Below, in pieces: positions 1-24,188 of a stretch of DNA of 64,000 bases. The first letter of the stretch is position 1. Every line of letters starts with the position of its first letter. The notes under the pieces were generated by a model that saw only the letters and a program-made list of their open reading frames with translations, searched no databases and was not told the DNA's origin. The position numbers and the translations under genes were made by a program. Origin of the DNA: Pseudomonadota bacterium (GTDB lineage Bacteria; Myxococcota_A; UBA796; SXON01); the NCBI GenBank assembly GCA_005778355.1, contig SXON01000240.1, positions 8,938 to 72,937 on the forward strand, read 5' to 3'.

Positions 1-1377
1 CTGTTTTACGCCTGGCAGGCGAAGAAGCTCGCCGACCGCGAGGGGCGCACCGACATCTGCGCCCTGCCCTACGGCATCAACACCGTGTCGCTGTTCGGGC
101 ATGTCTTCCTCGTGATGTTGCCGGCCAAGCTCGGCGCGGAAGCCGCGGGACACCCCGACCCCGCCACGGTGGCCTGGCAGGCCGGTCTCGCCGCCACGCT
201 GGGCTCGGGCCTCATCGAGGCGGTCGGCGCGCTGGTGGCGGAGCGGGTGCGCAAGGCCACGCCCCGGGCGGCGCTCTTGTCCACGCTCGCGGGGATCGCG
301 CTCTCCTTCATCGCGCTCGGCTTCCTCTTCCGCACCTTCGCGCGCCCGGTGGTGGGACTCGCGACGCTCGGCGTGGTGCTCCTCACCTACTTTGGACGCG
401 TGAAGTTCCGGGGTGGACTCCCCGGCGGGCTGGTGGCGGTGCTGCTGGGGACGGCCCTGGGCTGGGCCACGGGCATCGCCCCGGTGGGCCCGTCTCCGGG
501 CGCGCCGTTCTTGCACCTGCCGATCCCGGTGGTGGGCGACCTGTTGGCTTCCCTCCCCTACCTGCTCCCCTACATGGCGGTGATCGTGCCCATGGGGCTC
601 TTCAACCTCGTGGGGAGCTTGCAGAACATCGAGTCAGCCGAGGCGGCGGGCGACCGCTTCCCCACCGCGCCCTCTCTCGCGGTGAACGGGCTCGGGAGCA
701 TCGCGGCGGCGCTTTTCGGCTCCACCTTCCCCACCACCATCTACATCGGTCACCCGGGCTGGAAGGCGATGGGGGCGCGGGCCGGCTACTCGGTGCTCAA
801 CGCCGCGTTCGCCACGGTGGTGTGTCTCACCGGCACCCTGGCGCACATCGCCTGGGCGATCCCCATCGAGGCCGGGATGGCGATTGTCTTGTGGATCGGC
901 ATCGTGATCACCGCGCAGGCCTTCGTGGCCACCCCCCAGAAGCACGCAGCCGCCGTGGTGGTGGGGCTTCTGCCCGGCGTGGGCGCCTGGGGCGCGCTGA
1001 TGGCCAAGAACGGCCTGCGCGCGGCTGGCTATGGCAGCGAGAAGCCCTTCACCGAGGAGCTCATCGGCAAGTTCGCGCCGAGCGACACCTGGATCCACGG
1101 CGCCTTCGCGCTCGAGCAGGGCTTCATCTTCACGGCGATGGTGCTCGCGGCGGTCACCGTCTACATCATCGAGCGTCGTTTCCGCGTGGCTGCCGGGTGG
1201 GCGGCCCTGGGTGCCGTGCTCTCGGCCACTGGGCTGGCACACGCGTACCAGTTCACCTTCGGCGACGCGGCGATGGCGCTGTTTCCCGCGTGGGAACACG
1301 CCATCGGCTACGGGGTGATGGCGCTACTGTTGCTCGTGGCGGAGTGGGTGACGGTGGAGGACGAGGGGGGGCATTGA
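1..1377 (+). CDS. NCS2/AzgA-like nucleobase permease family membrane protein (5' end outside window)
   Basis: Frame 1 is open from base 1, so the GTG at 85 is probably internal and the N-terminus lies upstream. The product is polytopic (GIALSFIALGFLF, AVIVPMGLFNLVGSLQNIESAEAAGD, AIPIEAGMAIVLWIGIVITAQAF). Family assigned from memory of xanthine/uracil permease-like sequences. Confidence 0.5.
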   Translation: MFYAWQAKKLADREGRTDICALPYGINTVSLFGHVFLVMLPAKLGAEAAGHPDPATVAWQAGLAATLGSGLIEAVGALVAERVRKATPRAALLSTLAGIALSFIALGFLFRTFARPVVGLATLGVVLLTYFGRVKFRGGLPGGLVAVLLGTALGWATGIAPVGPSPGAPFLHLPIPVVGDLLASLPYLLPYMAVIVPMGLFNLVGSLQNIESAEAAGDRFPTAPSLAVNGLGSIAAALFGSTFPTTIYIGHPGWKAMGARAGYSVLNAAFATVVCLTGTLAHIAWAIPIEAGMAIVLWIGIVITAQAFVATPQKHAAAVVVGLLPGVGAWGALMAKNGLRAAGYGSEKPFTEELIGKFAPSDTWIHGAFALEQGFIFTAMVLAAVTVYIIERRFRVAAGWAALGAVLSATGLAHAYQFTFGDAAMALFPAWEHAIGYGVMALLLLVAEWVTVEDEGGH

Positions 1378-1386
1378 GCGAAGTGG

Positions 1387-1719
1387 TCAGTCGGTGAGGG
1401 CGGACTGGACGGATTCGAAGCAGCCCTCGAACGCCGTAATGAACACGTCGTAGCAAACGATAAGCTCATCGCTGGACTTCGGCTGCGCCGCGAGCGCGGA
1501 GGTACTCCCAGTTTCATAGTAGGCGCAGTATGCGTCAGCCTCCGCCTCCAGCTCACCCGATGCTGCGACGCCGTCCACCCCAGCACGCACGGCGGCGAGA
1601 GAGCCCGCCTCACACCCCTCGGCACCCCAGTATTGGGCCGCGTGAGGGGGACATGGGGCGTCGCCCCAGCACCCGGCGAGGCCTACGAGGAAGTGCGCTC
1701 CGATGGCTGAGCGGTTCAC
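1387..1719 (-). CDS. Small Cys-containing lipoprotein D' (third gene of cassette copy 2; candidate partner/immunity protein)
   Basis: The GTG at 1719 overlaps the TGA of the upstream gene (GTGA), with GAGGAG 5 nt upstream. The predicted signal is (M)NRSAIGAHFLVGLAG|C. The mature protein is acidic with 6 Cys. It has no visible similarity to D at 3958..4296. Confidence 0.55.
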   Translation of the reverse strand: MNRSAIGAHFLVGLAGCWGDAPCPPHAAQYWGAEGCEAGSLAAVRAGVDGVAASGELEAEADAYCAYYETGSTSALAAQPKSSDELIVCYDVFITAFEGCFESVQSALTD

Positions 1720-3110
1720 TGGCACTCCTCGGGGACCTTGTCCTGCTCCACCCGCCAACTCCCGTCCTCGACGCCCGGGGTGAGGAGTCGGGCCTCGAAC
1801 TCCCAGGTGCTCATCGATGCGCCGGAGGACTCTTGCTCCAGCAGGTCACAAATCCGCTGGTCGCTCCAACGGCCGTCGAAATTGCGGTCACCGCGATCCA
1901 CCATCCCCGTCCGGGCCGCGACCTTCAGCCCCCACCGCGCAGGCACCCGCCAGCCGCAACACGCTCCGCCGCAGTGGTACGGCACGTGGTCCCAGGCGTG
2001 CACAACATGGTACAACTCATGCAAGATGTCAGTCGCGAGCGATAGTACGAAGCTCATCCCAAAGCGGCACGCGAGGGTTGCGTTGCCGACGTACATCGTG
2101 GCGGCGGCCATGCGGGCCGGAATTTGCTCGTCCTCCGGCAACTCGTCCCAGCCCTCCCCATTGTACTGCGCGCCCTCCCGGTACGCCCAGTACAAACGGT
2201 GAGCCTCGAATAGCGCAAGGTCGGTCGCGGTCCCGACGCACTCCACGTACAGATTACACAGGTGAATTGAGTTGAAGATCGGATCGGTGACGCCGTTCCT
2301 GGTGAAGTCCCAAGCGTAGCCCGTCCCGAAAGGACAATCCTCGGAATCGTCAGGCGTGCACCGCGAACCGAAGCCGCAGGCGTTCACCTCGAAGAAGGTC
2401 CAGGAGTCGACGAGGAGCGACCACGTCGACTTGTCGCCGCCCAGCAGCGCATCGATACTCGCACGAATGCCGGCGCAACCATGCAACTCGTCGGGGATCA
2501 TCCACGTGTAGGTATCCAGCAGGCTCAGGGCGTGAAGGACGACGTGCCAGGCGGGGCTATCCTCCGCGATCCCGGTCCAGAACTTCCCAACGTCGTGAAA
2601 GCCCGTGAACGCCTCGATCCAGCCCCCGTACGTAGAGAAGTCGTGTCGGGCATACAGGTCACGGTCACTCCAGTAGCGCGGCATCAGGGCCCGCAAGGTT
2701 TGCACGCGCGCCTCGGCGGTACCGGGCGGCTGGTAGGTGGAGTCGATTGCATAATCGAATGCGCCGCAGGTCACGACATCGAGCACGGGGGAGATTCCCT
2801 TGTAGTGCCTCGACGCGGACCGTGCGGAAACAGGACGCGCGCCGGACGGCCAGACGGCGGCGACGGCAATCGGCTGGCGATCTTCCCGGAGCGGCAATCT
2901 GGTGAGAAGTCGCGAGGGGCGACGGCCACCGCACGGGATCGCATGGGGAACCTGCTCGTGGGCAGCGGCGGCCCGACCACCGCAGCGGCACGATGCGCCA
3001 GAAGCGCTGCAGGCGTGACCGCAGTCGCAGGCGGTGTCCCTCGCGGTACGCGACGCCCGGCGAGCGCGGCGCCCCCAGTCCACCTCCGGCGCGATCCGCC
3101 CCCGCGCCAC
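1716..3110 (-). CDS. C': protein with conserved N-terminal tag, CxCGxxCx6CxC knuckle and HExxH zincin-like motif
   Basis: 464-aa ORF with high GC3. The GTG start lies 1 nt after the stop of B'. N-terminus is MARGRIAPEVDWGR, followed by C28-x-C-G-x-x-C-x6-C-x-C43. DILHELYHVVHAWDH is encoded at 1986..2021. No signal peptide. Confidence 0.65.
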   Translation of the reverse strand: MARGRIAPEVDWGRRARRASRTARDTACDCGHACSASGASCRCGGRAAAAHEQVPHAIPCGGRRPSRLLTRLPLREDRQPIAVAAVWPSGARPVSARSASRHYKGISPVLDVVTCGAFDYAIDSTYQPPGTAEARVQTLRALMPRYWSDRDLYARHDFSTYGGWIEAFTGFHDVGKFWTGIAEDSPAWHVVLHALSLLDTYTWMIPDELHGCAGIRASIDALLGGDKSTWSLLVDSWTFFEVNACGFGSRCTPDDSEDCPFGTGYAWDFTRNGVTDPIFNSIHLCNLYVECVGTATDLALFEAHRLYWAYREGAQYNGEGWDELPEDEQIPARMAAATMYVGNATLACRFGMSFVLSLATDILHELYHVVHAWDHVPYHCGGACCGWRVPARWGLKVAARTGMVDRGDRNFDGRWSDQRICDLLEQESSGASMSTWEFEARLLTPGVEDGSWRVEQDKVPEECQ

Positions 3111-3420
3111 GCTACTGCCCCTTGAGCGTGACGTAGAGCACGCCGCAACAGGTCGCCTCCCTGGGCACGGTCACGCCGGTGTGCAGGCGCCACTTGAGCT
3201 GCAAGCGGACGCGTTGCATGTGGTGGGTGGTCGCCGGGATGTTGGTGATCGCCACCATGCCCGGACCCGCCGTGGTCTGGTCGGTGGGTGTAGCGCCGTT
3301 GCCGAAGAAGGGGAGCGAGGTCACCTCGTGGTCGTCGCCCCACCCCGCGAAGAGATCGACGTTCCAGTCGATCTCGTTGATGCCCACGTCGTCGAGCAAC
3401 CAACGGTGTTGTATCGACTC
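3071..3420. repeat. Conserved junction segment, copy 2 (about 90% identical by eye to 5867..6212)
   Basis: Manual alignment shows long identical runs, e.g. ctccggcgcgatccgcccccgcgccacgctactgccccttgagcgtgacgtagagcacgccgc. The segment covers the first ~14 codons of C' and the last ~100 codons of B'. Confidence 0.8.
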
Positions 3421-3549
3421 GCGGTGCGGAACGAGCCCCTCCGGCTCGGGGACGTCGCGACCTTCGACCTTGCTCGTGTTGGTACGGCTGCCGAACTCGT
3501 TGCGCCTGGGCGCGAATAAGATGCCGATGACGCGACTGCGAACTCCCAT
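3112..3549 (-). CDS. B': small beta-rich protein of unknown family (first gene of cassette copy 2)
   Basis: The ATG at 3549 is preceded by AGGGAG (minus strand AAGGGAGTGCCCTATG). 145 aa, no signal peptide. The C-terminal ~95 aa are about 87% identical to B (INEIDWNVD.FAGW...TSLPFFG.GATP.DQTTAGPGM.AITNIPATTH...LQLKWRLHTGVTVP...GVLYVTLKGQ). The N-terminal ~45 aa are diverged. Confidence 0.65.
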   Translation of the reverse strand: MGVRSRVIGILFAPRRNEFGSRTNTSKVEGRDVPEPEGLVPHRESIQHRWLLDDVGINEIDWNVDLFAGWGDDHEVTSLPFFGNGATPTDQTTAGPGMVAITNIPATTHHMQRVRLQLKWRLHTGVTVPREATCCGVLYVTLKGQ

Positions 3550-3748
3550 AGGGCACTCCCTTGGGTGGTTGAGGAGCCCTCGGTGACGGGGCTCACCGTT
3601 GCGACGCCGTTGGGGACTGCCTGACACCCCGGCCAGCGTCGAAACCGCATCTCGAGGTTGTCGACCGATTTGCTCTGACATCGTTGCCATCGACGCTGCA
3701 GCGCGGTCAACGTCGTGGTCCACCTCGGCGATGCCCCCACCGAGGCGA

Positions 3749-3829
3749 GTCTTCATCGTGGTCCAGCGCCCGCTCTCGCCCCTCGTCGATGATGAGCACG
3801 AGCGGCCGGTTCCCATCAACGCAGTCCTC
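3749..3829 (-). pseudogene. Fragment of a second copy of the 3' end of gene A (6530..7567)
   Basis: Translation EDCVDGNRPLVLIIDEGRERALDHDED matches the A C-terminus EDCVAGKRPLVLTIDDGRERALDVYED at 21 of 27 positions, and the DNA is also alignable. No upstream remainder of an A-like gene is present. Confidence 0.55.
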
Positions 3830-3957
3830 CGCCTCGGCCGGCGTCAGCCGCCGGACGTGGCCGCATGTGACTTGCCGCGCATCGAATTGTCCCCGAGCCA
3901 CCCAGAGCGCCGCCTTTCACCCGGCGGGGTGTCCGACTACGGCCGGAGCCAGAACCG

Positions 3958-4296
3958 TCACTCAACATAGCGCCAGCATTCCCAATAGGGGACGTCGTTG
4001 CCGTCGCAGGTGACGTGTCCGGTGCGGGCGACGTCTCTAGTTGCATCGCGAAAGCTGCAATCGTGGCGGCTCATCGCTGCACCTAGCCTGCCTAGGTCGA
4101 GTGAACGCACCGAGGAGGCGTCGTCGCAGGTTGTGGAATCGCTGCACCAATACTCGATGGTGTTCGCCGAGTCCTCGGGGAGGTCGTCGGCTTCATCGTA
4201 CCACTCGCAGATAGTCTCTTGAGGTACCCACTCGCGCTCTCGACATCCCGCCACCGCAAGCCCGGCACCAACGACCACGCATGCGCGGGACTTCAA
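3958..4296 (-). CDS. Small Cys-rich lipoprotein D (third gene of cassette copy 1; candidate partner/immunity protein)
   Basis: The TTG at 4296 overlaps the TGA of C (TTGA), with AGGTGA 5 nt upstream. The predicted signal is (M)KSRACVVVGAGLAVAG|C. The mature protein is acidic with 8 Cys. Confidence 0.55.
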   Translation of the reverse strand: MKSRACVVVGAGLAVAGCREREWVPQETICEWYDEADDLPEDSANTIEYWCSDSTTCDDASSVRSLDLGRLGAAMSRHDCSFRDATRDVARTGHVTCDGNDVPYWECWRYVE

Positions 4297-5906
4297 AGCG
4301 TCACCTGGATCGATTCGTTCTTGCCCGTCTTCGAGCACGCGGCTGGCGTGGCCAGTGTGGCAACGCTCGAAGTCCGCCGCAGGCCGAAGGCGGTCGTCGC
4401 GTAGCTGTCGCCTTCCGGAGACGTGTCGCAGCCACTCGTACCGTCGCCCGAGGCCCGCCCCGTGAACACATTCAACGGGCGAATGAAGATATTCCGCGCC
4501 TCAAGGGTCTGCACCTCGCCACCCGCTGCGGGGTCGAGGTACCGCGCCAACCGCGCACGGTCGCGCTGCCGACCTACCCCGTCGGCGAGCGGCCGCACCC
4601 ACTCGTAGGTGTCAGAGTGGAGCGTGGCCCAGGTCCCGTCCGTCACGGAGCTCATCGAGGTGAACGTCGGCGTGAGCCCGTACAGGGCCGCGAAGCGTCC
4701 GAGGCCCAGCACCTCCATCTTCTTGCGCGGGCACGCCGTCCCGCTGCCGTCGAGGTACTGGCAGTGGTTCCAGATCTCGAAGTGCACGTGCTCGTGCAGG
4801 ATCACCGCAGCGATGTAGGCGAGCTCCGCGAAGGCGACCTTGGCGCAGCCCAGACCAGCATAGTAGGTCGCAGGGTTGGTATCCTCGAGCGAGCGCGAGT
4901 GGAGACGCCATGCCCACCACAGCAAGTAGTCCGCGAGGATGGCTTGCTCGAGGAGGCTCTGTCCCAGCGCGATGACGAAGGCAGTGCTCGCAATGGCCTC
5001 CCCCTTGCCAAGATGCCCGACGGTAATCCGCCCGTCCGCCGTCATCACGAGGACCGCCTCGTCGCTTCCCAACCGGGCGGCATCCGACAGGTGCACCTCG
5101 AGCCGCTCGGCACGGATGTCCGCCCGGGTGTCCTCGTACCGGTCCTTCAGTCCCTGCGACACTGTGTTCGGCATCCTGGACGCGGCAATGAGCTGGAGCG
5201 CGTGACAGGTGGCGCGGAACATCACGCCGTCGCCCTCGTCCCAGAAACAGCCCTTGATCTTCGGCTGCTGGTTCACCCGGATGTTGGTCGCGATGCTATG
5301 CCAGCCGATGCGGTCGGCACCCATGTACTCGGGCATGTACGCCTGGAACATCTCCCGCTTGGACGTCCTCGGCTCGTAGCCCTCCGGAAGCACCGGCGCG
5401 AGCGAGAGCGTCGCGCCGTTGACGACCATCGGCCCGATGTCGATCCGGCAACGGTCGCGGAGCAGGCGCACGTCCCTGGCCCACGCGACCTCGAGCTGCT
5501 CGTCTCCGCACACCGGGTCGATCGGCTCTCCGTACTTTCGCTCCTCGCGCCGCTGCTGCGCCGCGGCAGCCAGATCGGCGAGCGTGCGCCCGTAGCCCGC
5601 GGGGGCGTGTCTAAACTGCCAGCCTGCGTACCTCGCGGAGTTCCAGGGCGGCGGGACCTCGGCATCATCCGGCTCCGCCATGCCATGGAGCATGGCGGTG
5701 TCTCGCCGAGCAGAGCCCCGCGGCGGCGCCGCAGGGGCCGGCCGCGCGGGACCGCCAGGCACCACAGGGGGGCGGGATCGGCAGTTGCACGGCGAGCCCG
5801 CCCCGCCACAGGTGCCTCCGCACCCACAGCCGCCACGCGCGGTCGACCCGCCGGAAACGTGCGTGCGCCCCCAGTCGACCTCCGGCGCGATCCGCCCCCG
5901 CGCCAC
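4293..5906 (-). CDS. C: protein with conserved N-terminal tag, CxCGxxCx6CxC knuckle, Pro/Arg-rich linker and HExxH zincin-like motif
   Basis: 537-aa ORF. The GTG start lies 1 nt after the stop of B. N-terminus is MARGRIAPEVDWGR, followed by C27-x-C-G-x-x-C-x6-C-x-C42 (5781..5828). VILHEHVHFEIWNH is encoded at 4764..4796. No signal peptide. Confidence 0.65.
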   Translation of the reverse strand: MARGRIAPEVDWGRTHVSGGSTARGGCGCGGTCGGAGSPCNCRSRPPVVPGGPARPAPAAPPRGSARRDTAMLHGMAEPDDAEVPPPWNSARYAGWQFRHAPAGYGRTLADLAAAAQQRREERKYGEPIDPVCGDEQLEVAWARDVRLLRDRCRIDIGPMVVNGATLSLAPVLPEGYEPRTSKREMFQAYMPEYMGADRIGWHSIATNIRVNQQPKIKGCFWDEGDGVMFRATCHALQLIAASRMPNTVSQGLKDRYEDTRADIRAERLEVHLSDAARLGSDEAVLVMTADGRITVGHLGKGEAIASTAFVIALGQSLLEQAILADYLLWWAWRLHSRSLEDTNPATYYAGLGCAKVAFAELAYIAAVILHEHVHFEIWNHCQYLDGSGTACPRKKMEVLGLGRFAALYGLTPTFTSMSSVTDGTWATLHSDTYEWVRPLADGVGRQRDRARLARYLDPAAGGEVQTLEARNIFIRPLNVFTGRASGDGTSGCDTSPEGDSYATTAFGLRRTSSVATLATPAACSKTGKNESIQVTL

Positions 5907-6212
5907 GCTACTGCCCCTTGAGCGTGACGTAGAGCACGCCGCTGAAGGTCGCCTCCTGGGGCACGGTCACGCCCGTGTGCAGGCGCCACTTGAGCTGCAA
6001 GCGGACGTGCTGCATGTAGTGGGTGGTCGCCGGGATGTTGGTGATCGCCGCCATGCCCGGACCCGCCGTGGTCTGGTCGCTGGGCGTGGCGCCGCTGCCG
6101 AAGAAGGGGAGCGAGGTCAGTTCGTGGTCGCGGTCCCAGCCCGCGAAGAAATCGACGTTCCAGTCGATCTCGTTGATGCCCACGTCGAGCAACCCCTGCA
6201 ACTGCATCGACT
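5867..6212. repeat. Conserved junction segment, copy 1 (partner of 3071..3420)
   Basis: See 3071..3420. Outside this segment the two cassette copies are not obviously alignable at DNA level. Confidence 0.8.
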
Positions 6213-6342
6213 CCGCATGTGGCAGTAGGCCCGCGAGCTCGGGCAGGTCGAGATCGTCGTACTTGTACGTCGACGTGCTGTCGGCGAACATGCGGAACTT
6301 GAGCGTGAAGGGGATCGCGACGACGCGGCTGCGAACGGCCAT
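5908..6342 (-). CDS. B: small beta-rich protein of unknown family (first gene of cassette copy 1)
   Basis: The ATG at 6342 is preceded by AGGAGA 5 nt upstream (minus strand CACAGGAGAACCCATG). 144 aa, no Cys, no signal peptide. The longer 293-aa ORF in the track has no support upstream of this start. Confidence 0.65.
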   Translation of the reverse strand: MAVRSRVVAIPFTLKFRMFADSTSTYKYDDLDLPELAGLLPHAESMQLQGLLDVGINEIDWNVDFFAGWDRDHELTSLPFFGSGATPSDQTTAGPGMAAITNIPATTHYMQHVRLQLKWRLHTGVTVPQEATFSGVLYVTLKGQ

Positions 6343-6359
6343 GGGTTCTCCTGTGGACG

Positions 6360-6400
6360 GTGAAGGAGCCCCCGTGAAGGAGCCCCCGTGAAGGAGCCCC
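6360..6400. repeat. Tandem 14-bp repeat gtgaaggagccccc x3 in the leader of gene B
   Basis: Units lie at 6360-6373, 6374-6387 and 6388-6400 (13/14), with a partial fourth copy near 6412-6420. The period is not a multiple of 3, so the repeat is non-coding. Only one degenerate copy lies upstream of B'. Confidence 0.85.
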
Positions 6401-6529
6401 GAGCTTCGATGCCCGTGAAGATTACCGGCCCCCCTCGCCTGGGTCAACATGCCGCGTGCAACATTCAAAACTATTCTCGATGACGTCGTTCTCATCGGCA
6501 CCGCAGCATGATCGACGTCGTGACCCATG

Positions 6530-7567
6530 TCAGTCACCCCCACACAACGGCCAGTCCTCATAAACGTCCAACGCCCGTTCTCGCCCGTCGTCGATGGTGA
6601 GCACCAGCGGACGTTTCCCTGCCACGCAGTCCTCCGTCCCGAGGAGCGCGAGACCCTCGATGTTGTCGTCTCCCGGGTAGTCGTAGATGGCCTCCAGGTC
6701 GAGTGCGCCGGCCGTCGACGAGAGCCGGTACACACCCAGGTCGTTGTGGTCGCCCCCGTGCCAAGCGTACAGGCGCGCCGTGGAGGCATCCCACTCCAGG
6801 GCGCTCAGATCATCGCGGGCGGACTGGTATTCACCTACGTGCTCGAACTCAACACCGGTATCCGAGAGGTCGAAAACGTGAACCAAGCCGCCGTTCTGGG
6901 TGCCCACGAAGAAGAGCCCGCCATGCCCGAGCTCCGAGGTCCGCGCCGCGCCGGACTCGTCCACGAAGCCCCCCTCGGCGAGCGCCGCGTCGGGCACGAA
7001 AGCGAGGCCCTCGGAGCCGAGGGAACCGGAGGTGGGCAAGTAGGGGCTCGTGTCCCACGTCAAGCCAAGGCTCGCCACGCCGGAAGCGGACACCTCGGCA
7101 GACTGGATTCGCTCCTCGTGCTCCACCATCAAGTAGATGACACTCGGCGCGCCGGTCGGATCGGGCACCACCACCGATTCCAGGTCGAGGTCCCCGAGGT
7201 CGGCCTCGCGGTCGATGGCCCAGGCGCCGTCCCCGTCGCGGGTGAGCGTCCACGCGGTGGCTCCGTCGCCCCGGACCACCCACAGCTCCCGGGTGACGGG
7301 GTTCCAGGTTGCGCCGGACAGCGAGATCTCGAAATCTTCCTCCAGCCCCGCGAGGGCGGTGACGTCGGGCGGCAAGGATGCCGGCCAGGGGAGAAGCTCG
7401 CTGGCGCCGGTGTCGTTCCCGGAGTCAGCGCCGCTGTCGACGCCGGAATCAGCGCCGGTGTCCCCTGGTGAGTCCCCAGCCGCGGTGTCGATAGCCGAGT
7501 CTCCAAGCGCCGAGTCACCCCCGCCGATCCTCACCGAGTCGGGCGCGCAAGCAAACAGCATCCACAT
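6530..7567 (-). CDS. A: lipoprotein with SdiA-regulated/phytase-like beta-propeller-type domain
   Basis: Start chosen at the ATG at 7567 (MWMLFAC lipobox). The sequence is rich in short beta-strand repeats (LSGATWNP..RELWVV, GLFFVGTQNGGLVHVFD, LSALEWDASTARLYAW, IEGLALL), resembling SdiA-regulated/esterase-like-phytase families. Family call is tentative. Confidence 0.5.
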   Translation of the reverse strand: MWMLFACAPDSVRIGGGDSALGDSAIDTAAGDSPGDTGADSGVDSGADSGNDTGASELLPWPASLPPDVTALAGLEEDFEISLSGATWNPVTRELWVVRGDGATAWTLTRDGDGAWAIDREADLGDLDLESVVVPDPTGAPSVIYLMVEHEERIQSAEVSASGVASLGLTWDTSPYLPTSGSLGSEGLAFVPDAALAEGGFVDESGAARTSELGHGGLFFVGTQNGGLVHVFDLSDTGVEFEHVGEYQSARDDLSALEWDASTARLYAWHGGDHNDLGVYRLSSTAGALDLEAIYDYPGDDNIEGLALLGTEDCVAGKRPLVLTIDDGRERALDVYEDWPLCGGD

Positions 7568-7637
7568 CCCCCCAAGATACCCCCTCGCCCATCCCTCTGT
7601 GCGCTCTGTGGCTCTGTGCGAGCCCCTCTTGCCCCCC
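7545..7637. repeat. Leader/promoter segment of gene A, copy 1 (similar to 7965..8049)
   Basis: ccacatcccc..aaga.acccc.t.gccc.tccctc.gtgc...ctctgtgcgagcc.ctcttgcccc is shared by both copies. Copy 1 carries a ~10-nt insertion. Confidence 0.7.
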
Positions 7638-7917
7638 ACCCGCTCCCACGCCGCCGGGCACGCGGCGAGCGCACACCAGTCGCCTCGGCACCTCCGCCTC
7701 CCGTCGTGAGCGATTGCTGCATGGACCGGAATCGTCGTGAGTACAGTGCGCTCCAACCGGACGCGCGGCCGCTTCCCGCGCCGACCCGGGCTGACGACCC
7801 GACGAAAACGGCGGTTTGTCCGTCGCGCCCCCCCTTCGGTCGTGCCTCGACGCCCTCGCGGTCGCCTGCCGTGTCATTCCAGTCACCCTGTGCTCACGAC
7901 GAGTGCGGTTCGCATCG

Positions 7918-7989
7918 TCATCGCTTGCGACGGCGCACGGTGCTACCCATCCCCACCGAGCCAGGCGAGCAAGCAACGAGCAACCACAT
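7918..7989 (-). pseudogene. Orphan lipoprotein signal-peptide remnant (MWLLVACSPGSVGMGSTVRRRKR*)
   Basis: A 23-codon ORF whose first 10 codons and upstream ~60 bp parallel the start of gene A (MWMLFACAPDSV). It terminates immediately afterwards. Confidence 0.45.
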
Positions 7990-8049
7990 CCCCGCAAGAC
8001 ACCCCCTTGCCCCTCCCTCCGTGCCCTCTGTGCGAGCCACTCTTGCCCC
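7965..8049. repeat. Leader/promoter segment, copy 2 (partner of 7545..7637)
   Basis: See 7545..7637. Confidence 0.7.
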
Positions 8050-8156
8050 GCGTCACCACCCCGTCTCAACCCCGCCCCGCTCGCCACAAAAAAAGACCTT
8101 GCAGATTCTTCACGCCCGGGTGTATACGCCGCCTCCCCAAAAACACGGTGCTCCGT

Positions 8157-11129
8157 ATGCGCTCTTTCTACCTCCACTTCGCCCTCCTCGCCGCCGGCTG
8201 TCTCGCCGAGACCGAGGGCCAGACCCTCTACGTCGTGGGCCCCCACAGCGAAATTGACGACCCCGCCGCGATGCGCGGCATGGCCTACGCCACCACCATC
8301 CAGGACGCGATCGACGCGGCCGCCTCGGGCGACACGGTGAGCGTGGCCGCCGGCACCTACTCCGAGGACATCACCCTGAAGGACGGCGTCACCGTCACGG
8401 GCGCCGGGCAGGGCCAGTCCTACCTCTACGGCACCGTCATTCACGGCTCGGGCACCGCCACCATCAAGTCCTTCTCGATGGTCGACCCCACCTACGTGTC
8501 GAGCGGCACGCGCTACAGCGACTACGGCATCTACGTGTCCGGCGGAACTCTCGTGGCCGAAGACATGGGCGTCCACTACTACAACGTGGGCATCTACGCC
8601 GACGCGGCCACCGCCGTCACCATCAACGACTCGCTCCTCTCCTACAACTGGTACGGCGCGGGCACCACCTCGTCGAGCAACTTCACGCTGACGAACAGCC
8701 TCGTGGGCAGTAACGCCGCCGGCGGCGTGTACGTGCAGGGCGGCACCAACACCACCATCACCTACAACGACTTCATCGCCAACGCCTACGCCGCGACCAG
8801 CGCCTACCTCGTGGGCGCCATCGCCTACGCGAGCACCACCGGTAGCGGCCACGTGATGGCCAACAACATCGTGGTGTCGAACTACTATGGCGTCGACTGC
8901 TACAGTTGCTCGCTCACCCAACGCAACAACCTCGTGTGGGGCAACACCACCGACTACACCAACGACGCGGCGGCAGACAGCTCCGAGCTCGCGGTCGACC
9001 CGCTCTTCGAGGCCGCCAGCGAGGGAAACTTCAAGCTCACCGCCACCTCGCCCTGTATCGACGCCGGCAGCAACAGCTACGGCCACGCGAGCGACAGCGA
9101 CGGCGAGACCCGCCCCCAGGGCGCCGGCTACGACATCGGCATGGACGAGTACGCGTCGTCGTCCTACAGCCTGATCATCTCCGAGGTGATGGCCAACCCG
9201 CTCACCGAGTCCACGCAGGAGTTCGTGGAGATCTACAACGCGGGCACGGCCTCCGTGGACCTCGCCGGCTTCCAGCTCACCGACGGCGACGAGGTCGACA
9301 CCTTGCAGGCCTTCGGCAGCTCCGCCACCACGCTCGCCCCGGGCGAGTACGCGGTGGTGCTCGACCCCGAGTACGTGTCTGGCTACACCATCGACGCGAG
9401 TGTCACGCTCCTCACCACCGGCGACACCGAGGTGGGCAACGGCCTGACCACGGGCGACCCGGTCAAGCTCATGGAGACCGACGGCACCACCGTGGCCGCC
9501 ACCATGAGCTACCCGAAAGACCCCGGCAATGGTGTCTCGCTCGAGATGATCGACCTCGACACCGGCGACGCCGCCGGCAACTGGCGCGCGTCCTCCTGCG
9601 CGGACGAGTCGTCCCCCGGCGCCGAGCACTGCTTCCCGGAAACGGCGGATCCGGCCGTGCTCGTCATCACCGAGGTGATGGCCAACCCGGCCAACGAGTA
9701 CACCGGCGAGTACGTCGAGATCTACAACCCGAGTCCGCTCGAGGTCGACGCGTCCGGTCTGATTCTCCGCGACAACGCCTCGTCCGACACCCTGGTAGGC
9801 TTCCAGAGCGGGAGCACCTTGATCGGCGCGGGCGAGCACGCGGTGGTGGTCGATCCCGGCTACACCTACGATTACTACCTGCCCTCCGACATCGTGCTGC
9901 TCACCACGGGCGACGCGACGCTCGGCAACGGCATTAGCACGCGCGACAGCGTGTACCTCTACCAGGCTGACGGCGCCACGCTCATCGACAGCTACACCGC
10001 CATCCGCGACCCGGGTGACAGCTACTCGGTGGAGAAGGTGCTCTACGACGTGGGCAACGTGCTCGGCAACTGGCAGTCCTCCACCACCACCTGCGCCCGC
10101 GGCCGCTCGCCCGGCCGCCTCAACGGCAGCCAGTCCGGTATCTGCGAGCCGCTCATGATCACCGAGGTGATGAGCAACCCGCTGGATGAAGACACCGGCG
10201 AGTTCATCGAGATCTACAACGCGGGCAGCAACGACGTGGATCTCTCGGGCCTGATGCTCTCCGACGGCGACGAGGACGACACCATCCAGAGCTACGACGG
10301 CGGCACGACCGTGCTCCCGGCCGGGAGCTTCGCGGTGGTCGTAGACAGCGAGTACGCCGACGAGTACAGCATCCCCGCCGATGCCATCGTGGTGACGCTC
10401 TCCAACTCTACGCTGGGTAACGCGCTGAGTGTCACCGAGGAAGTGTACCTCTACGAGGCCGACGGCGAGCACATGGTCGACGCGCACATCTACCCAATCA
10501 ACGCGGGCAACGGCACCAGCACCGAGCGCGTGGCCATCGCCGGGAGCCTCGATAGCTCCAGCAACTGGCTCGCCTCGACCTGTGGCTCGGGCTCCTCGCC
10601 CGGCGACGACAACTGCGTGAGCACCGGCTCCTCCGGCTCCTCCACCTCCACCTACGACCTGCTCATCACCGAGGTGATGGCCAACCCGCTGGATGAGACC
10701 ACGGGCGAATTCGTGGAGATCTACAACAACGGCAGCACGGCCGTCGACCTGCTCTACATGGTGATCTGGGACGGCGACGCCCTCGACACCATCTTCGGCT
10801 TCTACGACATCTACGACACCGTGCTCGACCCGGGCGAGTACGCCGTCATCCTGGACAGCAACTACGCCGGCGAGTACACCCTCCCGAGCGGCGCGCTGTG
10901 GCTCACCGCCGACGACACCAACATCGGCTCCGGTCTCGCCACCAACGACCCGATCTCCTTCTACGAGTCCGATGGCGTGGCGCTGATCGACACCTTCAGC
11001 TTCCCCACCGACCCGGGCAACGGCACGAGCATCGTGCGTGTCGACCTGGCCACGGGCGACGTGTCGACCAACTGGACCTCCTCCTCCTGCTCGTCGGGCT
11101 CCTCGCCCGGCGGCTCTACCTGCCCCTAG
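8157..11129 (+). CDS. Lipoprotein with right-handed parallel beta-helix domain followed by four lamin-tail domains (LTD)
   Basis: The ATG at 8157 gives MRSFYLHFALLAAG|C. The beta-helix region contains ASGDTVSVAAGTYSEDITL and NNLVWGN. There are four LTD-type repeats: ISEVMANPL..EFVEIYNAG, ITEVMANPA..EYVEIYNPS, ITEVMSNPL..EFIEIYNAG and ITEVMANPL..EFVEIYNNG. Upstream in-frame codons in the track ORF are Arg/Pro-rich and lack support. Confidence 0.75.
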   Translation: MRSFYLHFALLAAGCLAETEGQTLYVVGPHSEIDDPAAMRGMAYATTIQDAIDAAASGDTVSVAAGTYSEDITLKDGVTVTGAGQGQSYLYGTVIHGSGTATIKSFSMVDPTYVSSGTRYSDYGIYVSGGTLVAEDMGVHYYNVGIYADAATAVTINDSLLSYNWYGAGTTSSSNFTLTNSLVGSNAAGGVYVQGGTNTTITYNDFIANAYAATSAYLVGAIAYASTTGSGHVMANNIVVSNYYGVDCYSCSLTQRNNLVWGNTTDYTNDAAADSSELAVDPLFEAASEGNFKLTATSPCIDAGSNSYGHASDSDGETRPQGAGYDIGMDEYASSSYSLIISEVMANPLTESTQEFVEIYNAGTASVDLAGFQLTDGDEVDTLQAFGSSATTLAPGEYAVVLDPEYVSGYTIDASVTLLTTGDTEVGNGLTTGDPVKLMETDGTTVAATMSYPKDPGNGVSLEMIDLDTGDAAGNWRASSCADESSPGAEHCFPETADPAVLVITEVMANPANEYTGEYVEIYNPSPLEVDASGLILRDNASSDTLVGFQSGSTLIGAGEHAVVVDPGYTYDYYLPSDIVLLTTGDATLGNGISTRDSVYLYQADGATLIDSYTAIRDPGDSYSVEKVLYDVGNVLGNWQSSTTTCARGRSPGRLNGSQSGICEPLMITEVMSNPLDEDTGEFIEIYNAGSNDVDLSGLMLSDGDEDDTIQSYDGGTTVLPAGSFAVVVDSEYADEYSIPADAIVVTLSNSTLGNALSVTEEVYLYEADGEHMVDAHIYPINAGNGTSTERVAIAGSLDSSSNWLASTCGSGSSPGDDNCVSTGSSGSSTSTYDLLITEVMANPLDETTGEFVEIYNNGSTAVDLLYMVIWDGDALDTIFGFYDIYDTVLDPGEYAVILDSNYAGEYTLPSGALWLTADDTNIGSGLATNDPISFYESDGVALIDTFSFPTDPGNGTSIVRVDLATGDVSTNWTSSSCSSGSSPGGSTCP

Positions 11130-11139
11130 GAATACGACA

Positions 11140-12168
11140 ATGCGCTTCCTCCTCCTCTGCCTCGCCGCCTGCCCCAGCGGCGACGACACCGCCAAGGATG
11201 GCGACACCGAGGTCGGCCACGACTCCGGCAACGACACCGGCGACGATACCGGGACCGATACCGACACCGATACCGGCGACGACACCGCCGTCGACACCGG
11301 CGACGACACTGGCGAGCTGCCCCCGCCGGAGCTCGTTGCCATCGAGTGGACCACGCTCCCCGCCACCGACATCACGACGCGCGACACCCTCGCCCTGCAG
11401 GTGACGGCCTCGTTCAGTGACGGCAGCAGCACCGACGCCTCGGCGATGGTGAGCTACGTCTCGAGCGACGAGATGGTGCTCAAGGTCTATGAGCCCGGCG
11501 TGGGCCAGCCCATCTGGGCGGGCAGCGTCACGGTCACCGCCACGCTCGAGGGCCACGAGCTCTCCGCGACGGCAAACGTCACGCTCGCCAGCGCCACCAC
11601 GGGCGACCTCGTGTTCAACGAGGTGCTCGCCGACGGCACCGTCGACGGCGACCCCAACGGCGACGGCAACCCCGACGCCGTGGAAGACGAGTTCGTGGAG
11701 ATCGCCAACGCGTCGGACGTGACGGTCGACCTCTCGGGCTACACGTTGGTGGAGGAAGACCTCTACTACCTGCCGCGCCACACCTTCGCCGAGGGCACGG
11801 TGCTCCGCGCCGGCGAGGCGATCGTCGTGTTCGGCGGTGGGGACACCTCGAGCCTGGCGCCCACCAACTGCACCGCCGTGGTGGCGGTCAACGGCGACTC
11901 GGCGCTCGAATACGGCCTCGCGCTCAACAACGAGGGCGAGAACATGTCGCTGGTCGATACCGCGGGCACCACGGTGGCGGGCTTCGCCTACGGCGACGGC
12001 ACCGACATCGAGGCCATTGAGGACGCGAGCTACGTGCTCAGTCCCGAGGTGTACGGCACCGACTACACGCACCACACCTACGCGACCGGCAGCACCGGCG
12101 ACTTTTCCGCCTGCGCCTACGTCGATGGCACCGCCTACGCGGGCCACGACGCGCGCTACTCCCCGTAG
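11140..12168 (+). CDS. Lipoprotein with Big_2-like Ig domain and one lamin-tail domain
   Basis: The ATG at 11140 gives MRFLLLCLAA|C, followed by a D/T/G-rich linker, an Ig-like segment (TLALQVTASFSDGSSTD...VTVTATLEG) and an LTD (VFNEVLADG...EFVEIANAS). Confidence 0.65.
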   Translation: MRFLLLCLAACPSGDDTAKDGDTEVGHDSGNDTGDDTGTDTDTDTGDDTAVDTGDDTGELPPPELVAIEWTTLPATDITTRDTLALQVTASFSDGSSTDASAMVSYVSSDEMVLKVYEPGVGQPIWAGSVTVTATLEGHELSATANVTLASATTGDLVFNEVLADGTVDGDPNGDGNPDAVEDEFVEIANASDVTVDLSGYTLVEEDLYYLPRHTFAEGTVLRAGEAIVVFGGGDTSSLAPTNCTAVVAVNGDSALEYGLALNNEGENMSLVDTAGTTVAGFAYGDGTDIEAIEDASYVLSPEVYGTDYTHHTYATGSTGDFSACAYVDGTAYAGHDARYSP

Positions 12169-20674: not shown

Positions 20675-21262
20675 CTACCCGTCGAGCATGCCCTTGGTGC
20701 TCGCCACCTTCGTGGTGCCGTCGCGCCGGGTGGCCGCCCGAAGGGCCCGCCCACAGGCCTTGAAGCTCGCCTCGCACACGTGGTGGTAGTCGCGACCGTG
20801 CAAGGCTTCCACGTGGAGATTGGCGCCGAGGTGGTCGCAGAGTGCCTTCCAGAAGCCCTCGAGCACGGTGAGATCGATGGTCGGGGTGTACACCCCCGGG
20901 ACGCTCACCCGCCAGGCCAGGTAGGCGCGTCCCGAGAGATCGAAGGCCGCACGCACAAGGGCCTCGTCCATGGGCATGTAGGCGTGCCCGGTGCGCTCGA
21001 TGCCGCGGCGATCACCGAGCGCCGCGCGCAGCGCCTGTCCGAGGACGATCCCCACGTCCTCCACGGTGTGGTGCGCGTCGATCTCGAGGTCGCCCTTGGC
21101 GTTGACCAGGAGCCCAAAACGCCCGTGCTTGGCGAAGGCCTCCAGCAGGTGGTCAAAGAAGGGAAGCCCCGTCTGGACGGCGATCTTGCCGCCATCGAGG
21201 CCTACATCCACGCTGATTGTCGTTTCCTTCGACTGGCGCTCGGCGCGTCCGCTTCGGTTCAC
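20675..21262 (-). CDS. hisB: Imidazoleglycerol-phosphate dehydratase (monofunctional)
   Basis: Contains GLPFFDHLLEAFAKHG and DAHHTVEDVGIVLG. 195 aa, with no HisN phosphatase domain. Confidence 0.9.
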   Translation of the reverse strand: MNRSGRAERQSKETTISVDVGLDGGKIAVQTGLPFFDHLLEAFAKHGRFGLLVNAKGDLEIDAHHTVEDVGIVLGQALRAALGDRRGIERTGHAYMPMDEALVRAAFDLSGRAYLAWRVSVPGVYTPTIDLTVLEGFWKALCDHLGANLHVEALHGRDYHHVCEASFKACGRALRAATRRDGTTKVASTKGMLDG

Positions 21263-23583
21263 GCTTCACCCCCGATGGTCGCAAGGAACAAGTCGTCCTC
21301 GGCCCGGCTGCCGATGCTCACCCTGAGGAAACCGGGGATGGTGGCGGACAGGTCGCGAACCAGCACCCCCGCAGCGAGGAGCCGCCGGAACTCCCCGGCT
21401 GGGTCGTCCGTCGAGAAAAGCAGGAAGTTAGCGCCGCCTTCTACCACGTGACGCCCTCGCGCCCGGAGCGTCGCTGCCAGCCGAGCTCGCTCGCTGGTGA
21501 CGTGTTGCACGCGCGCCGCCACGAGGTCGGGCGTGTCGAGAAGCACGGAAACCGCCGCCCGGGTGAAGGCGTTGACGTTATAAGGCAAGAGCAACTTGTG
21601 GAGTTCCAGGCAGAGGGACGGTGGCCCCAGCATGTAGCCGAAGCGGAGCCCGGCCATCGCGAGCGCCTTGCTGAAGGTGCGCAGCAAGACCACCCGGCCG
21701 CTCTCGAGGAAGACGGAGAAGTCTTGGCCGCACCACTCGCGGTAGGCCTCATCCACCACCAGGAGCGCGTCAGACTGGGTCTTGAGCACCCGGAGGATAC
21801 CTGGGTGGAGCACTGATCCGGTGGGGTTGTTGGGCGAGGTGAGGATGGCGATCTTGGCGCTGCGCACGGCCGAGAGACAGGCGTCGATCGAATAGGCGAA
21901 GTCGTCTTGTCGCGACAGAGGGATGCGCACGATGTCGGCCCCGCGGGCGCCCAGGAGGAGCGGGTACAGCGAGAAACAGGGATCGGGGATCGCCACGCGC
22001 TCGCCGAAACCCACCGTGGCCTGGATCAACGTGGCGAGGATCTCGTTGCTCCCGTTGCCGATGAGCACCCCCTCTGGCTTCCAGCCGTCGCGACGCGCGA
22101 TGAGCTCGCGCATCTCGACGTCGTCAAACGGCGGGTACCGCCGCCAGTCCAGGGCCAGCGCGCGGTCGAGGATGCGCTGCTTCACGTCGCGGGGCAGGTC
22201 GTCCGGTGCCTCGTTCTGGTTGAGCTTGGCGGGGGCGTCCGGTGGCGCGGTGAGCGTGTAAGCCTTGAGGGCTCGTACCTCGGGGATCACCCAGTCAGCG
22301 GCAGTGCGGGCGATGCCGCCGCCGACCGCCGCGTCGCCAAGCCGGACTTCAACGGCGCGAGCATGACCGGGCAGCCCCTCGGCGCGTGCGAACTCCACGA
22401 CGCTGGCGCCCTCGCGGAAAAGCCACTCCGCGTCGTGGGCGATCACCTGGACCCGGCGGACGAAGTCAGCCGTGCCGAGCGCCGATTGGAATCGGGCACA
22501 GCCGCCAGTGGGCAGCGTGTGGTTCGGCCCGGCGAAGTAGTCGCCCACGGGCTCGGGGCTGAAGCCACCGGCGAAGATCGACCCAGCGGCGGTGATCCGG
22601 TCCACGAGCGAGGGGTCGGCCTCGATCTGAAGGTGCTCCGGCGCGTAGCGGTTCACGAAGGCGACGGCGCCGTCGATGCTGGCGGCGAGCAGGATCCAGC
22701 CGTTCTGCTCCAGGGCCTCGGCGGCCACCGGGTTCGGGAAACGCAAGAGCTCGCGCTCCAGGGCGGGGCCGAGATCGTCGAAAACGCGGCGGGAGGTGGT
22801 GACGCAGAGTGGGATCGCCAGGGGATCGTGCTCGGCCTGCGCGATGAGATCGCAGGCAACGCGCCAGGGATCGGCCGACTCGTCGGCCAGGACCAGTACT
22901 TCCGAGGGTCCCGCGTGAATGTCGACCCCCACCCGGTGCGACACCTGCCGCTTGGCCTCGCCCACGTAGGCGTTGCCGGGGCCGGTGATCTTGTCGACGC
23001 GCGGCAGGGCGTCGGTGCCCAAAGCGAGCGCGGCCACGGCCTGGGCGCCACCGACACGGAAGACATCGGTCGCCCCGGCAACCAGCGCCGCCGCGGCGAT
23101 GACGGGGTTGATGCGCCCGTCCTTGCCCGGCGGGGTGACCACGCAGATGCGCCGGACACCGGCCACGCGCGCCGGGACCACGTTCATCAGCACGGTGGAG
23201 GGGTAGGCAGCGCGGCCGCCGGGCACGTAGCAGCCCACCACGTCGAGCGGGACGATGCGCTGGCGCAGGTGCCCGCCTGCCAGCGTGAAGGGACGCGGTC
23301 GTTGCGGGCCGTGGAAGGCCGCGATGTTCTCGGCGGCATGGACCATGGTGCTGACCAGTCCCTCGGGCACCGTCTCGGCGAGGGCCACCAGTTCGTCCTG
23401 TCGCACGCGCGCGGCGGGCACGTCCACGCCGTCGAAGCGATGGGTGTACTCGCGCACGGCGCGGTCGCCCCGGGCCGCCACGCTCGCGATGATCTCGCTC
23501 ACCACCTCGCCCACGCCGGCCGGCGCCAGCTCGCGCCGGGCGAGGACCACGGCCCCCTCGCGTTCTACCGTCCCTCGTCGCAT
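21259..23583 (-). CDS. hisD-hisC: In-frame fusion of histidinol dehydrogenase (N-terminal) and histidinol-phosphate aminotransferase (C-terminal)
   Basis: The ATG at 23583 opens a 774-aa frame with no stop. HisD motifs: GGAQAVAALA, ITGPGNAYV, AGPSEVLV, QAEHD. A ~20-aa linker follows (LGDAAVGGGIARTAADWV). HisC motifs: KLNQNEAP, NGSNE, SPNNPTG, DEAY, RTFSKALAMAGLRFGY. The 115-codon extension in the track ORF was rejected. Confidence 0.8.
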   Translation of the reverse strand: MRRGTVEREGAVVLARRELAPAGVGEVVSEIIASVAARGDRAVREYTHRFDGVDVPAARVRQDELVALAETVPEGLVSTMVHAAENIAAFHGPQRPRPFTLAGGHLRQRIVPLDVVGCYVPGGRAAYPSTVLMNVVPARVAGVRRICVVTPPGKDGRINPVIAAAALVAGATDVFRVGGAQAVAALALGTDALPRVDKITGPGNAYVGEAKRQVSHRVGVDIHAGPSEVLVLADESADPWRVACDLIAQAEHDPLAIPLCVTTSRRVFDDLGPALERELLRFPNPVAAEALEQNGWILLAASIDGAVAFVNRYAPEHLQIEADPSLVDRITAAGSIFAGGFSPEPVGDYFAGPNHTLPTGGCARFQSALGTADFVRRVQVIAHDAEWLFREGASVVEFARAEGLPGHARAVEVRLGDAAVGGGIARTAADWVIPEVRALKAYTLTAPPDAPAKLNQNEAPDDLPRDVKQRILDRALALDWRRYPPFDDVEMRELIARRDGWKPEGVLIGNGSNEILATLIQATVGFGERVAIPDPCFSLYPLLLGARGADIVRIPLSRQDDFAYSIDACLSAVRSAKIAILTSPNNPTGSVLHPGILRVLKTQSDALLVVDEAYREWCGQDFSVFLESGRVVLLRTFSKALAMAGLRFGYMLGPPSLCLELHKLLLPYNVNAFTRAAVSVLLDTPDLVAARVQHVTSERARLAATLRARGRHVVEGGANFLLFSTDDPAGEFRRLLAAGVLVRDLSATIPGFLRVSIGSRAEDDLFLATIGGEA

Positions 23584-24188
23584 CGGCCGAGCCTCTCGAG
23601 AAAGGGGGCAAGCGCCTCGCGTTGCAGCGCGTAGCTCGCCCGGTTGACCACCACCCGCGCGCTCACCTCGGCGAGCGTCGCGTACTCCACCAGACCATGC
23701 GCGCGCAGCGTGGCCCCGGTCTCCACCAGGTCGACGACGGCGTCGGCCAGCCCCACCACCACCGCTAGCTCCACGCTCCCATGGAGGGGGATCAGCTCGG
23801 CCACCAGGCCTCGTCGCGACAGGGCCTCGCCCGCCATGCGGGGGTACTTTGTGGCCACGCGGAGACCATCCTCGCGCATGCGGGCGACGAGATCGCTGCC
23901 TGGTCGCCCGCAGAGCGAAAGCCGACACCGCCCAAGGGTGGTCGTGACCGGCTCCAGCACGTCGGCCGGGTGCTCGCGCAAGACATCGAGCCCGGCCACG
24001 CCGAGGTCGGCCACGCCGCGCGCCACGTACGCGGGGACGTCGGGCGGCTTGAGCAGGAGGAACCTCACGCCGCCGTCGCGACCCGGCACCACGAGCTCAC
24101 GGCCATCAACCTGCACGGGACCGATCTCGGCAAGCGCCGCGACCACCTGGTCGGCGAGGCGTCCCTTGGGCAGGCCGAAGGTGATCAT
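23565..24188 (-). CDS. hisG: ATP phosphoribosyltransferase, short (HisZ-dependent) form
   Basis: 207 aa. N-terminus is ITFGLPKGRL. Confidence 0.85.
   Translation of the reverse strand: MITFGLPKGRLADQVVAALAEIGPVQVDGRELVVPGRDGGVRFLLLKPPDVPAYVARGVADLGVAGLDVLREHPADVLEPVTTTLGRCRLSLCGRPGSDLVARMREDGLRVATKYPRMAGEALSRRGLVAELIPLHGSVELAVVVGLADAVVDLVETGATLRAHGLVEYATLAEVSARVVVNRASYALQREALAPFLERLGRCDEGR

Follow-up and report, generated by a model that had tools for sequence, protein, structure and literature searches.

What kind of system is encoded by three short genes that stand twice in a row on a bacterial chromosome, with one part kept between the two copies and the rest replaced? The question is raised by the minus strand of a 64 kb stretch of contig SXON01000240.1 (hereafter the window, in which position 1 is the first letter), where six open reading frames (ORFs), all present at the coordinates proposed in the initial annotation, form two tandem cassettes. 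The first consists of B (5908..6342, 144 aa), C (4293..5906, 537 aa) and D (3958..4296, 112 aa), and the second of the B paralogue B' (3112..3549, 145 aa; P0004), C' (1716..3110, 464 aa) and D' (1387..1719, 110 aa). No third copy was found in the whole window. The answer put forward here, with moderate confidence, is that these are two tandem copies of an undescribed three-gene polymorphic effector/immunity-type module, in which B would act as an escort that binds a short tag at the N-terminus of C. An effector/immunity-like role had already been suggested when the sequence was first inspected, and it gains support from the synteny of the triad at other loci, the absence of B, C and D from characterised families in profile searches, the co-variation of C and D, shuffling, arrays of D genes and an orphan module.

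The genes of each cassette are tightly packed. Both B genes start with ATG and have a good Shine-Dalgarno sequence 5-6 nt ahead of it (GGAGA, 5 nt before the ATG, in the case of B). A single base separates the B stop (TAG, 5908-5910) from the GTG start of C (5904-5906), and the B'/C' junction is the same. D starts with a TTG that lies within the C stop (TTGA), and D' with a GTG that lies within the C' stop (GTGA), so that the 1-nt spacing and the start/stop overlaps first noted by eye hold in both copies.

About 20 further cassettes were then examined on metagenomic contigs and contigs of metagenome-assembled genomes (MAGs) from uncultured freshwater Myxococcota-like organisms. The expected B-C-D synteny was indeed seen there: B and the short C tag were conserved, while the C body and D varied. 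Judged by sequence, an arrangement that recurs in about 20 other loci is far beyond chance. Several genomes carry more than one cassette (the window, L059, L029/L030 and L011/L012), the neighbouring genes differ at every locus (M4 peptidases, eut genes, VapBC, IS110 and others), and no description of the module was found in the literature searched.

B is the most constant member of the triad. B and B' are about 72% identical overall (71-72%), and 82 of their last 94 residues match (87%), as had been estimated for the C-terminal ~95 aa. Among 5.8 billion clustered proteins B had 21 close relatives, all of 122-164 aa and strongly conserved, and a profile search run exhaustively against 1.84 billion representatives yielded 64 representative clusters. 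These are nearly all stand-alone proteins of 135-145 aa, and their source names are blank or read 'hypothetical protein'. No Pfam family was found for B or B' at E <= 1 or for 49 members of the B family at E <= 0.01, and the B profile had no match among PDB sequences. Neither B, C and D nor B', C' and D' gave anything meaningful in Pfam, NCBIfam, PHROG or PADLOC; the initial annotation had left B and C without a family, and profile searches likewise put B, C and D in no characterised one.

An AlphaFold2 model of B (pLDDT 83.6, pTM 0.77) is an all-beta sandwich with one short helix, and a Foldseek search with this model returned jelly rolls, the best being birnavirus VP2 (TMq up to 0.62) and the coat proteins of nanoviruses and tymoviruses. 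Matches to birnavirus VP2 and to coat proteins of small ssDNA/RNA viruses had a Foldseek probability of 1.0 at TMq 0.45-0.62, and lectin-like domains, TNF/C1q-type proteins and phage fibre tips were matched as well; for jelly-roll capsid, TNF-like and lectin-like folds the TM-scores were about 0.55-0.62. B is thus modelled as a jelly roll, which assigns a fold only, one that is shared with many non-capsid proteins. The Ena endospore-appendage pilins, which are jelly rolls too and have Cys-rich N-terminal connectors, were considered and set aside: the B family has no conserved Cys and no DUF3992 match, and the Cys cluster of the cassette lies on C.

The viral matches raise the idea that B self-assembles into a jelly-roll shell or tube, with the C tag as a cargo-loading peptide, and that the resulting particle stores or delivers the enzyme. 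Single-jelly-roll capsid proteins head the Foldseek results, and a conserved small shell-like protein beside a short terminal peptide on diverse partners follows the logic of cargo loading. Encapsulin operons are similar in this respect, with a short conserved terminal peptide on diverse proteins that adjoin a small gene of capsid-like fold. However, encapsulins have the HK97 fold, their cargo consists of metabolic or oxidative-stress enzymes, and they have no lipoprotein partner. The TM-scores are only about 0.3-0.6, generic jelly rolls cross-match, and non-capsid jelly rolls match B too. No B relatives were found in IMG/VR viral contigs in a pattern scan, and PHROG gave no match; the context is chromosomal, a compartment in the cytoplasm would leave a co-varying periplasmic lipoprotein with nothing to do, and no precedent was found in the literature searched. 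I therefore regard a capsid-like compartment as very unlikely.

In the effector/immunity module favoured here, the part of C that matters to B would be its first residues. The N-termini of C and C' matched in BLASTP at E 3e-9, and their first 14 residues are identical. This first tag motif, (V/M)ARGRIAPEVDWGR, occupies 5865..5906 in C and 3069-3110 in C', and is followed by a second, a Cys cluster of the pattern C-x-C-x3-C-x6-C-x-C (CGCGGTCGGAGSPCNC at 5781..5828 in C; 2982-3029 in C'). Genes adjacent to B at other loci begin with a DW motif (RGRIAPEVDW-like), with a CGCG/CxC Cys cluster or with both, the cluster standing before or after the DW motif depending on the locus, and variants of the DW motif include RGRIAPEVDW[GS]R, PIDWSR, PVDWS[RG], LPGIDWSQ, KLDWSG, ALDWSK and IEPAEW. 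The two motifs were present in 12/18 and 13/18 of the downstream N-termini (13/18 for CGCG/CxC) against ~1% of control 80-aa windows, an enrichment with P about 1e-20 that is to be read with the patterns having been written post hoc, after the data had been seen, and with the 18 loci not all being independent. The tag DNA differs synonymously between loci, which indicates that the tag is conserved at the protein level. Behind it follow a disordered G/A/P/R-rich linker, also seen at the N-terminus of window C, and then the variable body.

The tag had been missed in the source gene call, which began C at Met72. A start at Met72 was ruled out: the protein sequence of the 71 codons ahead of it is conserved between loci, and this conservation argues for the GTG as the true start of C; GC content at third codon positions was no guide in a region where every codon position is GC-rich. 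In most loci C starts 0-3 nt past the B stop, or it overlaps B (by 16 nt in L024), and its frame relative to B is 0, +1, +2 or an ATGA overlap. Because the frame of C varies between loci while the tag is conserved, a programmed frameshift or readthrough that joins B to C is excluded, and the pattern fits termination-reinitiation. One divergent branch has an extra 114-aa ORF between B and a tagged 920-aa beta-helix protein (L023 505-849 and L027 695-1039), which matches no Pfam family in a precomputed table.

At least eight groups of bodies, none of them similar to another, stand behind the tag. Window C groups with homologues in L022, L025 and, distantly, L060, and this group is marked by an invariant LADYLLWWAWRLHS segment and by HExxH-x5-HC. 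The homologues of window C (P0023 at 46%, L025 and L060) each follow a B gene. The C' body stands on its own, as does that of L024. L008 and L028 share a body with HEF(T/F)H, L011 and L014 one that has HELVH and hydrophobic helices at its C-terminus; L005, L021 and L062 make up a further group, and so do L001 and L059. Some bodies are recognisable envelope-type enzymes or folds: that of L026 has a PF00144 beta-lactamase/DD-peptidase fold (E 9e-31) with an intact SVSK (SxxK) motif, and those of L023 and L027 are 920-aa right-handed beta-helix proteins (E 2e-11). The L011 body ends, at about residues 360-407, in two strongly hydrophobic helices, which suggests that bodies of this type may insert in a membrane.

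The initial annotation had described the variable part of C as a zincin-like module. An HExxH motif, on a single helix, is indeed present in both window bodies, as HEHVHFEIWNH (HExxH-x5-H) after a hydrophobic helix at 4764..4796 in C and as HELYH at 2007-2021 in C', where the segment reads HELYHVVHAWDH; HEHVH-x5-H of C is invariant in three aligned family members, and HExxH on a hydrophobic helix recurs in at least four otherwise unrelated groups. However, this is only one of several types of C body. The resemblance to the zincin toxin domains (the Tox-MPTase families, DUF4157) lies in the HExxH on a hydrophobic helix in effector-like proteins; C and C' have no Pfam match at E <= 1. Neither C, the C-family profile nor C' matched any PDB sequence, and the C family had no matches in GTDB representative genomes.

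It had also been claimed that C and C' share only the first residues, the Cys motif and the HExxH block. This holds by BLASTP, but weak collinear similarity outside the tag emerged once L060 was included. In comparisons of tag-less profiles, the body families were unrelated except for short matches at the HExxH helix, where C' matched the L060 C at 43% over 44 aa (E 1e-5). The tag-less C family with L060 added aligned collinearly with tag-less C' at an hhalign score of 36.8 (E 4e-4), compared with a top score of 20.6 in 25 shuffled controls. C and C' are therefore probably very distant, and very old, homologues.

The third gene changes together with the second. D and D' were taken for lipoproteins from the start, and their hydrophobic N-termini do end in a lipobox: D begins with MKSRACVVVGAGLAVAG/C (lipobox LAVAG/C) and D' with MNRSAIGAHFLVGLAG/C (lipobox LVGLAG/C), with hydropathy maxima of 2.46 and 1.73. 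Both N-termini conform to the bacterial lipoprotein pattern of a basic n-region, a hydrophobic h-region and the lipobox [LVI][ASTVI][GAS]C. D is acidic and Cys-rich, and a comparison found no similarity between it and D', again as first described. Wherever the end of C lies on the contig, the next gene overlaps C, often by 4 nt, and encodes a lipobox protein. Window D is homologous to three tandem lipoproteins in L022 and a single one in L025, all of which follow C homologues, while the other C groups have other D families that range from 90-aa Cys-rich proteins up to 430-630 aa FG-GAP propellers. The families of C and D co-vary. L022 carries its three D paralogues in tandem, and in L059 two tandem cassettes are followed by an orphan module, in which 53 aa left over from the 3' end of a C gene precede a third FG-GAP D gene.

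These observations on C and D bear on whether the cassette is a weapon at all. The C proteins might instead be the producer's own envelope-remodelling or nutrient-scavenging enzymes (predatory lytic enzymes, or enzymes of cell-wall or exopolysaccharide processing), with D as a lipoprotein anchor, activator, substrate or regulator and B as a folding or export chaperone. The enzyme classes found among the C bodies serve housekeeping envelope biology too, some D proteins are large FG-GAP propellers that look more like scaffolds than like inhibitors, and the relatives are Myxococcota-like organisms; cultured Myxococcota secrete many hydrolases. What makes this explanation unlikely is that whole replacement of a catalytic body behind a conserved tag, strict co-variation of C with its downstream gene, tandem arrays of the partner gene, orphan remnants, and a patchy, rare distribution are not normal for housekeeping enzymes.

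Further evidence for an exchangeable effector/immunity module came from comparing the two window copies at the DNA level. A 328-nt block made up of B codons 51-144 and the first 14 codons of C (5865..6192 in the first copy, with its partner at 3069-3396) is 92% identical between the copies, while identity is ~63% upstream of it, over the first 150 nt of B, and the downstream flank cannot be aligned. Synonymous divergence (dS, by the Nei-Gojobori method) came to 0.78 for the first 50 codons of B but to 0.12 for its codons 51-144, and to 0.17 for the first 15 codons of C; the ratio of nonsynonymous to synonymous divergence (dN/dS) was about 0.5 throughout. The combination of high identity and low dS implies that the block was homogenised recently by gene conversion or crossover, and the pattern points to recent gene conversion beyond purifying selection alone. 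The graded divergence that had been described between the copies is a recombination mosaic, with dS stepping from 0.78 to 0.12. The block stops exactly at the boundary between the constant and the variable part.

Comparison between loci gave a matching result. B and B' of the window are 71% identical while C and C' show no significant match; in contrast, the window and L022 share only 27% in B but 45% in C (E 2e-128), and L001 and the second L059 cassette (L059b) share 35% in B and 54% in C. Such discordant identities imply that C-D pairs move between B backbones, in agreement with the conversion tract in the window, and this shuffling would in turn mean that the dealings of B with C depend on the tag and not on the body. 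The exchange zone, as read from these alignments, is the conserved 3' part of B together with the first codons of C.

The same data can be set against a two-component bacteriocin-like toxin, released by lysis or in vesicles, with B as a lectin-like or TNF-like jelly-roll subunit that binds receptors and remains attached to the C tag. In such a toxin the disordered N-terminus of C would act like a colicin translocation domain and D would be a periplasmic immunity protein. The fold of B is as close to receptor-binding or lectin-like jelly rolls as it is to capsid proteins, the lipoprotein partners suit a periplasmic site of action, and no secretion genes adjoin any cassette. The N-termini of C are long, G/A/P/R-rich and contain short linear motifs, as do colicin-type translocation domains. 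However, B is far more conserved than would be expected of a receptor-binding subunit in an arms race, and the stretch of B that is kept identical within the genome adjoins the tag. A lysis gene is not apparent either. I consider this possibility unlikely, to about the same degree as enzymes that serve the producer itself.

For the effector/immunity module, the following chain of events can be proposed. B and C would be made together in the cytoplasm through translational coupling, and B would bind C by the conserved N-terminal tag, not by the variable body. It would serve as an escort or adaptor that passes C on to export or delivery machinery whose genes lie elsewhere. Envelope components of other cells would be attacked by the C bodies, which in the window would be two different zincin-like HExxH domains and elsewhere include a serine DD-peptidase/beta-lactamase fold and a beta-helix. 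D would be a periplasm-facing lipoprotein that neutralises its cognate C, and the producer and its kin would thereby be protected.

Several features of this scheme are those of polymorphic toxin/immunity systems, a concept reportedly introduced by Zhang, Aravind and colleagues in 2012 (e.g. for Rhs, CDI, MafB and type VII secretion system LXG loci). As in those systems, the N-terminal part of C stays the same while its C-terminal enzymatic domains are exchanged: the tag and B are conserved in front of at least eight unrelated groups of bodies. The partner gene lies directly downstream, has an overlapping start and co-varies with C. Tandem partner arrays (the D genes of L022), orphan remnants (L059), recombination at the boundary between constant and variable parts (the conversion tract) and several cassettes per genome complete the likeness. 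Unlike in polymorphic toxins, where it is a large trafficking domain, the constant part of the putative effector is just a 15-45-aa tag; most of what is conserved lies in a jelly-roll protein of its own, presumably coupled to the effector in translation, and the cassettes contain no domain known for trafficking or secretion. The novelty lies in the conserved parts: a jelly-roll partner that carries no annotation, an N-terminal tag that is bipartite and very short, and no link to a known secretion system.

Type VI secretion system (T6SS) effectors that use Eag/DUF1795, Tap-Tec/DUF4123 or DUF2169 adaptors resemble the cassette in that a small protein encoded upstream is presumed to bind the effector N-terminus, that C has no signal peptide and carries envelope-type enzymatic bodies, and that, as in Tae/Tai and Tse1/Tsi1 pairs, a putative periplasmic or lipoprotein immunity protein is encoded directly downstream. 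However, B belongs to none of the adaptor families and differs from them in fold, C has no prePAAR, MIX or Rhs features, and no vgrG, PAAR or hcp gene was found near any cassette examined. The bacteria-killing type IV secretion system effectors of Xanthomonadales (X-Tfe), whose bodies are peptidoglycan hydrolases, lipases or metallopeptidases, are also made in the cytoplasm with no signal peptide, and the gene for a cognate periplasmic lipoprotein inhibitor (X-Tfi) comes next. C, likewise lacking a signal peptide and followed by a lipoprotein gene, fits that picture. In X-Tfe, however, the secretion signal is a ~120-aa C-terminal XVIPCD domain that is recognised by VirD4, while the cassette conserves a short tag at the N-terminus of C and, encoded separately, a jelly-roll protein. 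Type III secretion system (T3SS) class I chaperones are small cytoplasmic proteins encoded next to their effectors, often co-translated with them, that bind the extended effector N-terminus and form alpha/beta dimers. B is similar as a small, dedicated, adjacent and putative binder of the C N-terminus, but it is a predicted jelly roll instead of an alpha/beta dimer, there is no T3SS context, and the cassette has a lipoprotein as its third gene.

Several points weigh against an effector/immunity module with B as its escort. Neither a trafficking domain nor a linkage to secretion genes, both usual for polymorphic toxins, was found: secretion-system genes were absent from the window and from flanks of up to 10 kb elsewhere, and so were PAAR, VgrG, Rhs, TPS, LXG, MIX and XVIPCD domains, which leaves the cassettes with no known secretion link. 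B was not placed in DUF1795, DUF4123 or DUF2169 by the Pfam search. The effector and immunity functions are predicted here from genes, and the binding of B to the tag from the co-occurrence of the two. A few tags carry just one of the two motifs. The AlphaFold2 model of C, built from a 2-sequence alignment, was unusable at pLDDT 28.7, so what speaks for a zincin is a motif of five residues and the helix in which it sits. That B and C have no signal peptide was judged by eye and from hydropathy only. Finally, the large FG-GAP beta-propellers (430-630 aa) among the D proteins would be unusual as immunity proteins and may have another role.

The gene upstream of the first cassette, A (6530..7567, minus strand), has a sub-threshold match to PF06977 (SdiA-regulated-like, E 0.014). 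It had been called a lipoprotein, but the stretch at its N-terminus (MWMLFAC...) lacks the length of a convincing lipoprotein signal. Upstream of B', 39 codons from the 3' end of A are left as a remnant (3743..3859, minus strand; 59% identity over 39 aa). This remnant marks an old duplication boundary and places the start of the original duplication within A. At other loci A is not kept upstream of B; it is a neighbour and stands outside the conserved module. FG-GAP/propeller lipoprotein genes recur close to the cassettes in L001, L025, L059 and L062, and A might be an orphan D-type gene. On L062, a candidate second cassette on the opposite strand (145 aa, sulfatase, FG-GAP) was rejected, as its 145-aa ORF is not in the B family.

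Scans of 1200-7900 for promoters, terminators and Rfam families gave no match. At 6360-6400, 18 nt upstream of the B start, lies a perfect 14-nt tandem repeat of 2.9 copies (coding strand GGGGGCTCCTTCAC), of which B' has a single degenerate unit as its counterpart. The repeat could bind a regulator, or it could be prone to slippage.

The window as a whole is chromosomal, with a HisD-HisC fusion, a short-chain fatty acid transporter, a BamB-like protein and proteins with lamin-tail domains (LTD) or beta-helices. Divergent from the cassettes on the plus strand, a 1130-aa protein with a right-handed beta-helix and four lamin-tail domains (7737-11129) is followed by a 376-aa LTD protein (11038-12168); the L023 C body is a beta-helix too. 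The fusion is a single 889-aa ORF (21259-23928, minus strand) that joins histidinol dehydrogenase to a class I/II aminotransferase, and its closest relatives are in two 'Deltaproteobacteria bacterium' lake-water MAGs (91% and 89%), compared with 54% for a Myxococcales MAG. Elsewhere, an IS110-family transposase gene (L060 6457-7899) lies directly upstream of the B-C-D cassette, which hints at mobility of the module. High-GC MAG records that bear cassettes, namely L011/L012 (CAYHRZ01), L027 (CAZKWG01) and L033/L059 (CAMAWH01), are titled 'uncultured Klebsiella sp.', 'Enterobacterales' or 'Klebsiella pneumoniae', and these titles look like taxonomic mislabels.

A bolder proposal, which I hold to be quite improbable, is that B and the DW/CxC tag form a new delivery route, either as a capsid-like carrier that packages tagged enzymes or as a recognition signal for an export pathway of a kind not recognised so far. 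In the latter version, folded enzymes with no signal peptide would be moved to the envelope of other cells in Myxococcota-like bacteria.

If the effector/immunity module is what it appears to be, it would represent a new way to build polymorphic effectors, in which a tiny tag and a separate jelly-roll partner take the place of the large trafficking domains of Rhs, CDI and LXG toxins, and it would point to a means of delivery that known secretion-system genes do not reveal. The tag and B would make a defined peptide-protein pair and thus a candidate for a portable export or loading tag. Taken together, a gene of the B family, a DW/CGCG tag and a lipoprotein would form a signature with which uncultured predators could be searched for new envelope-targeting enzymes and for the inhibitors of these. 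With at least eight unrelated effector bodies, most of which have no detectable family, the cassettes would offer a pool of possibly new enzymatic activities.

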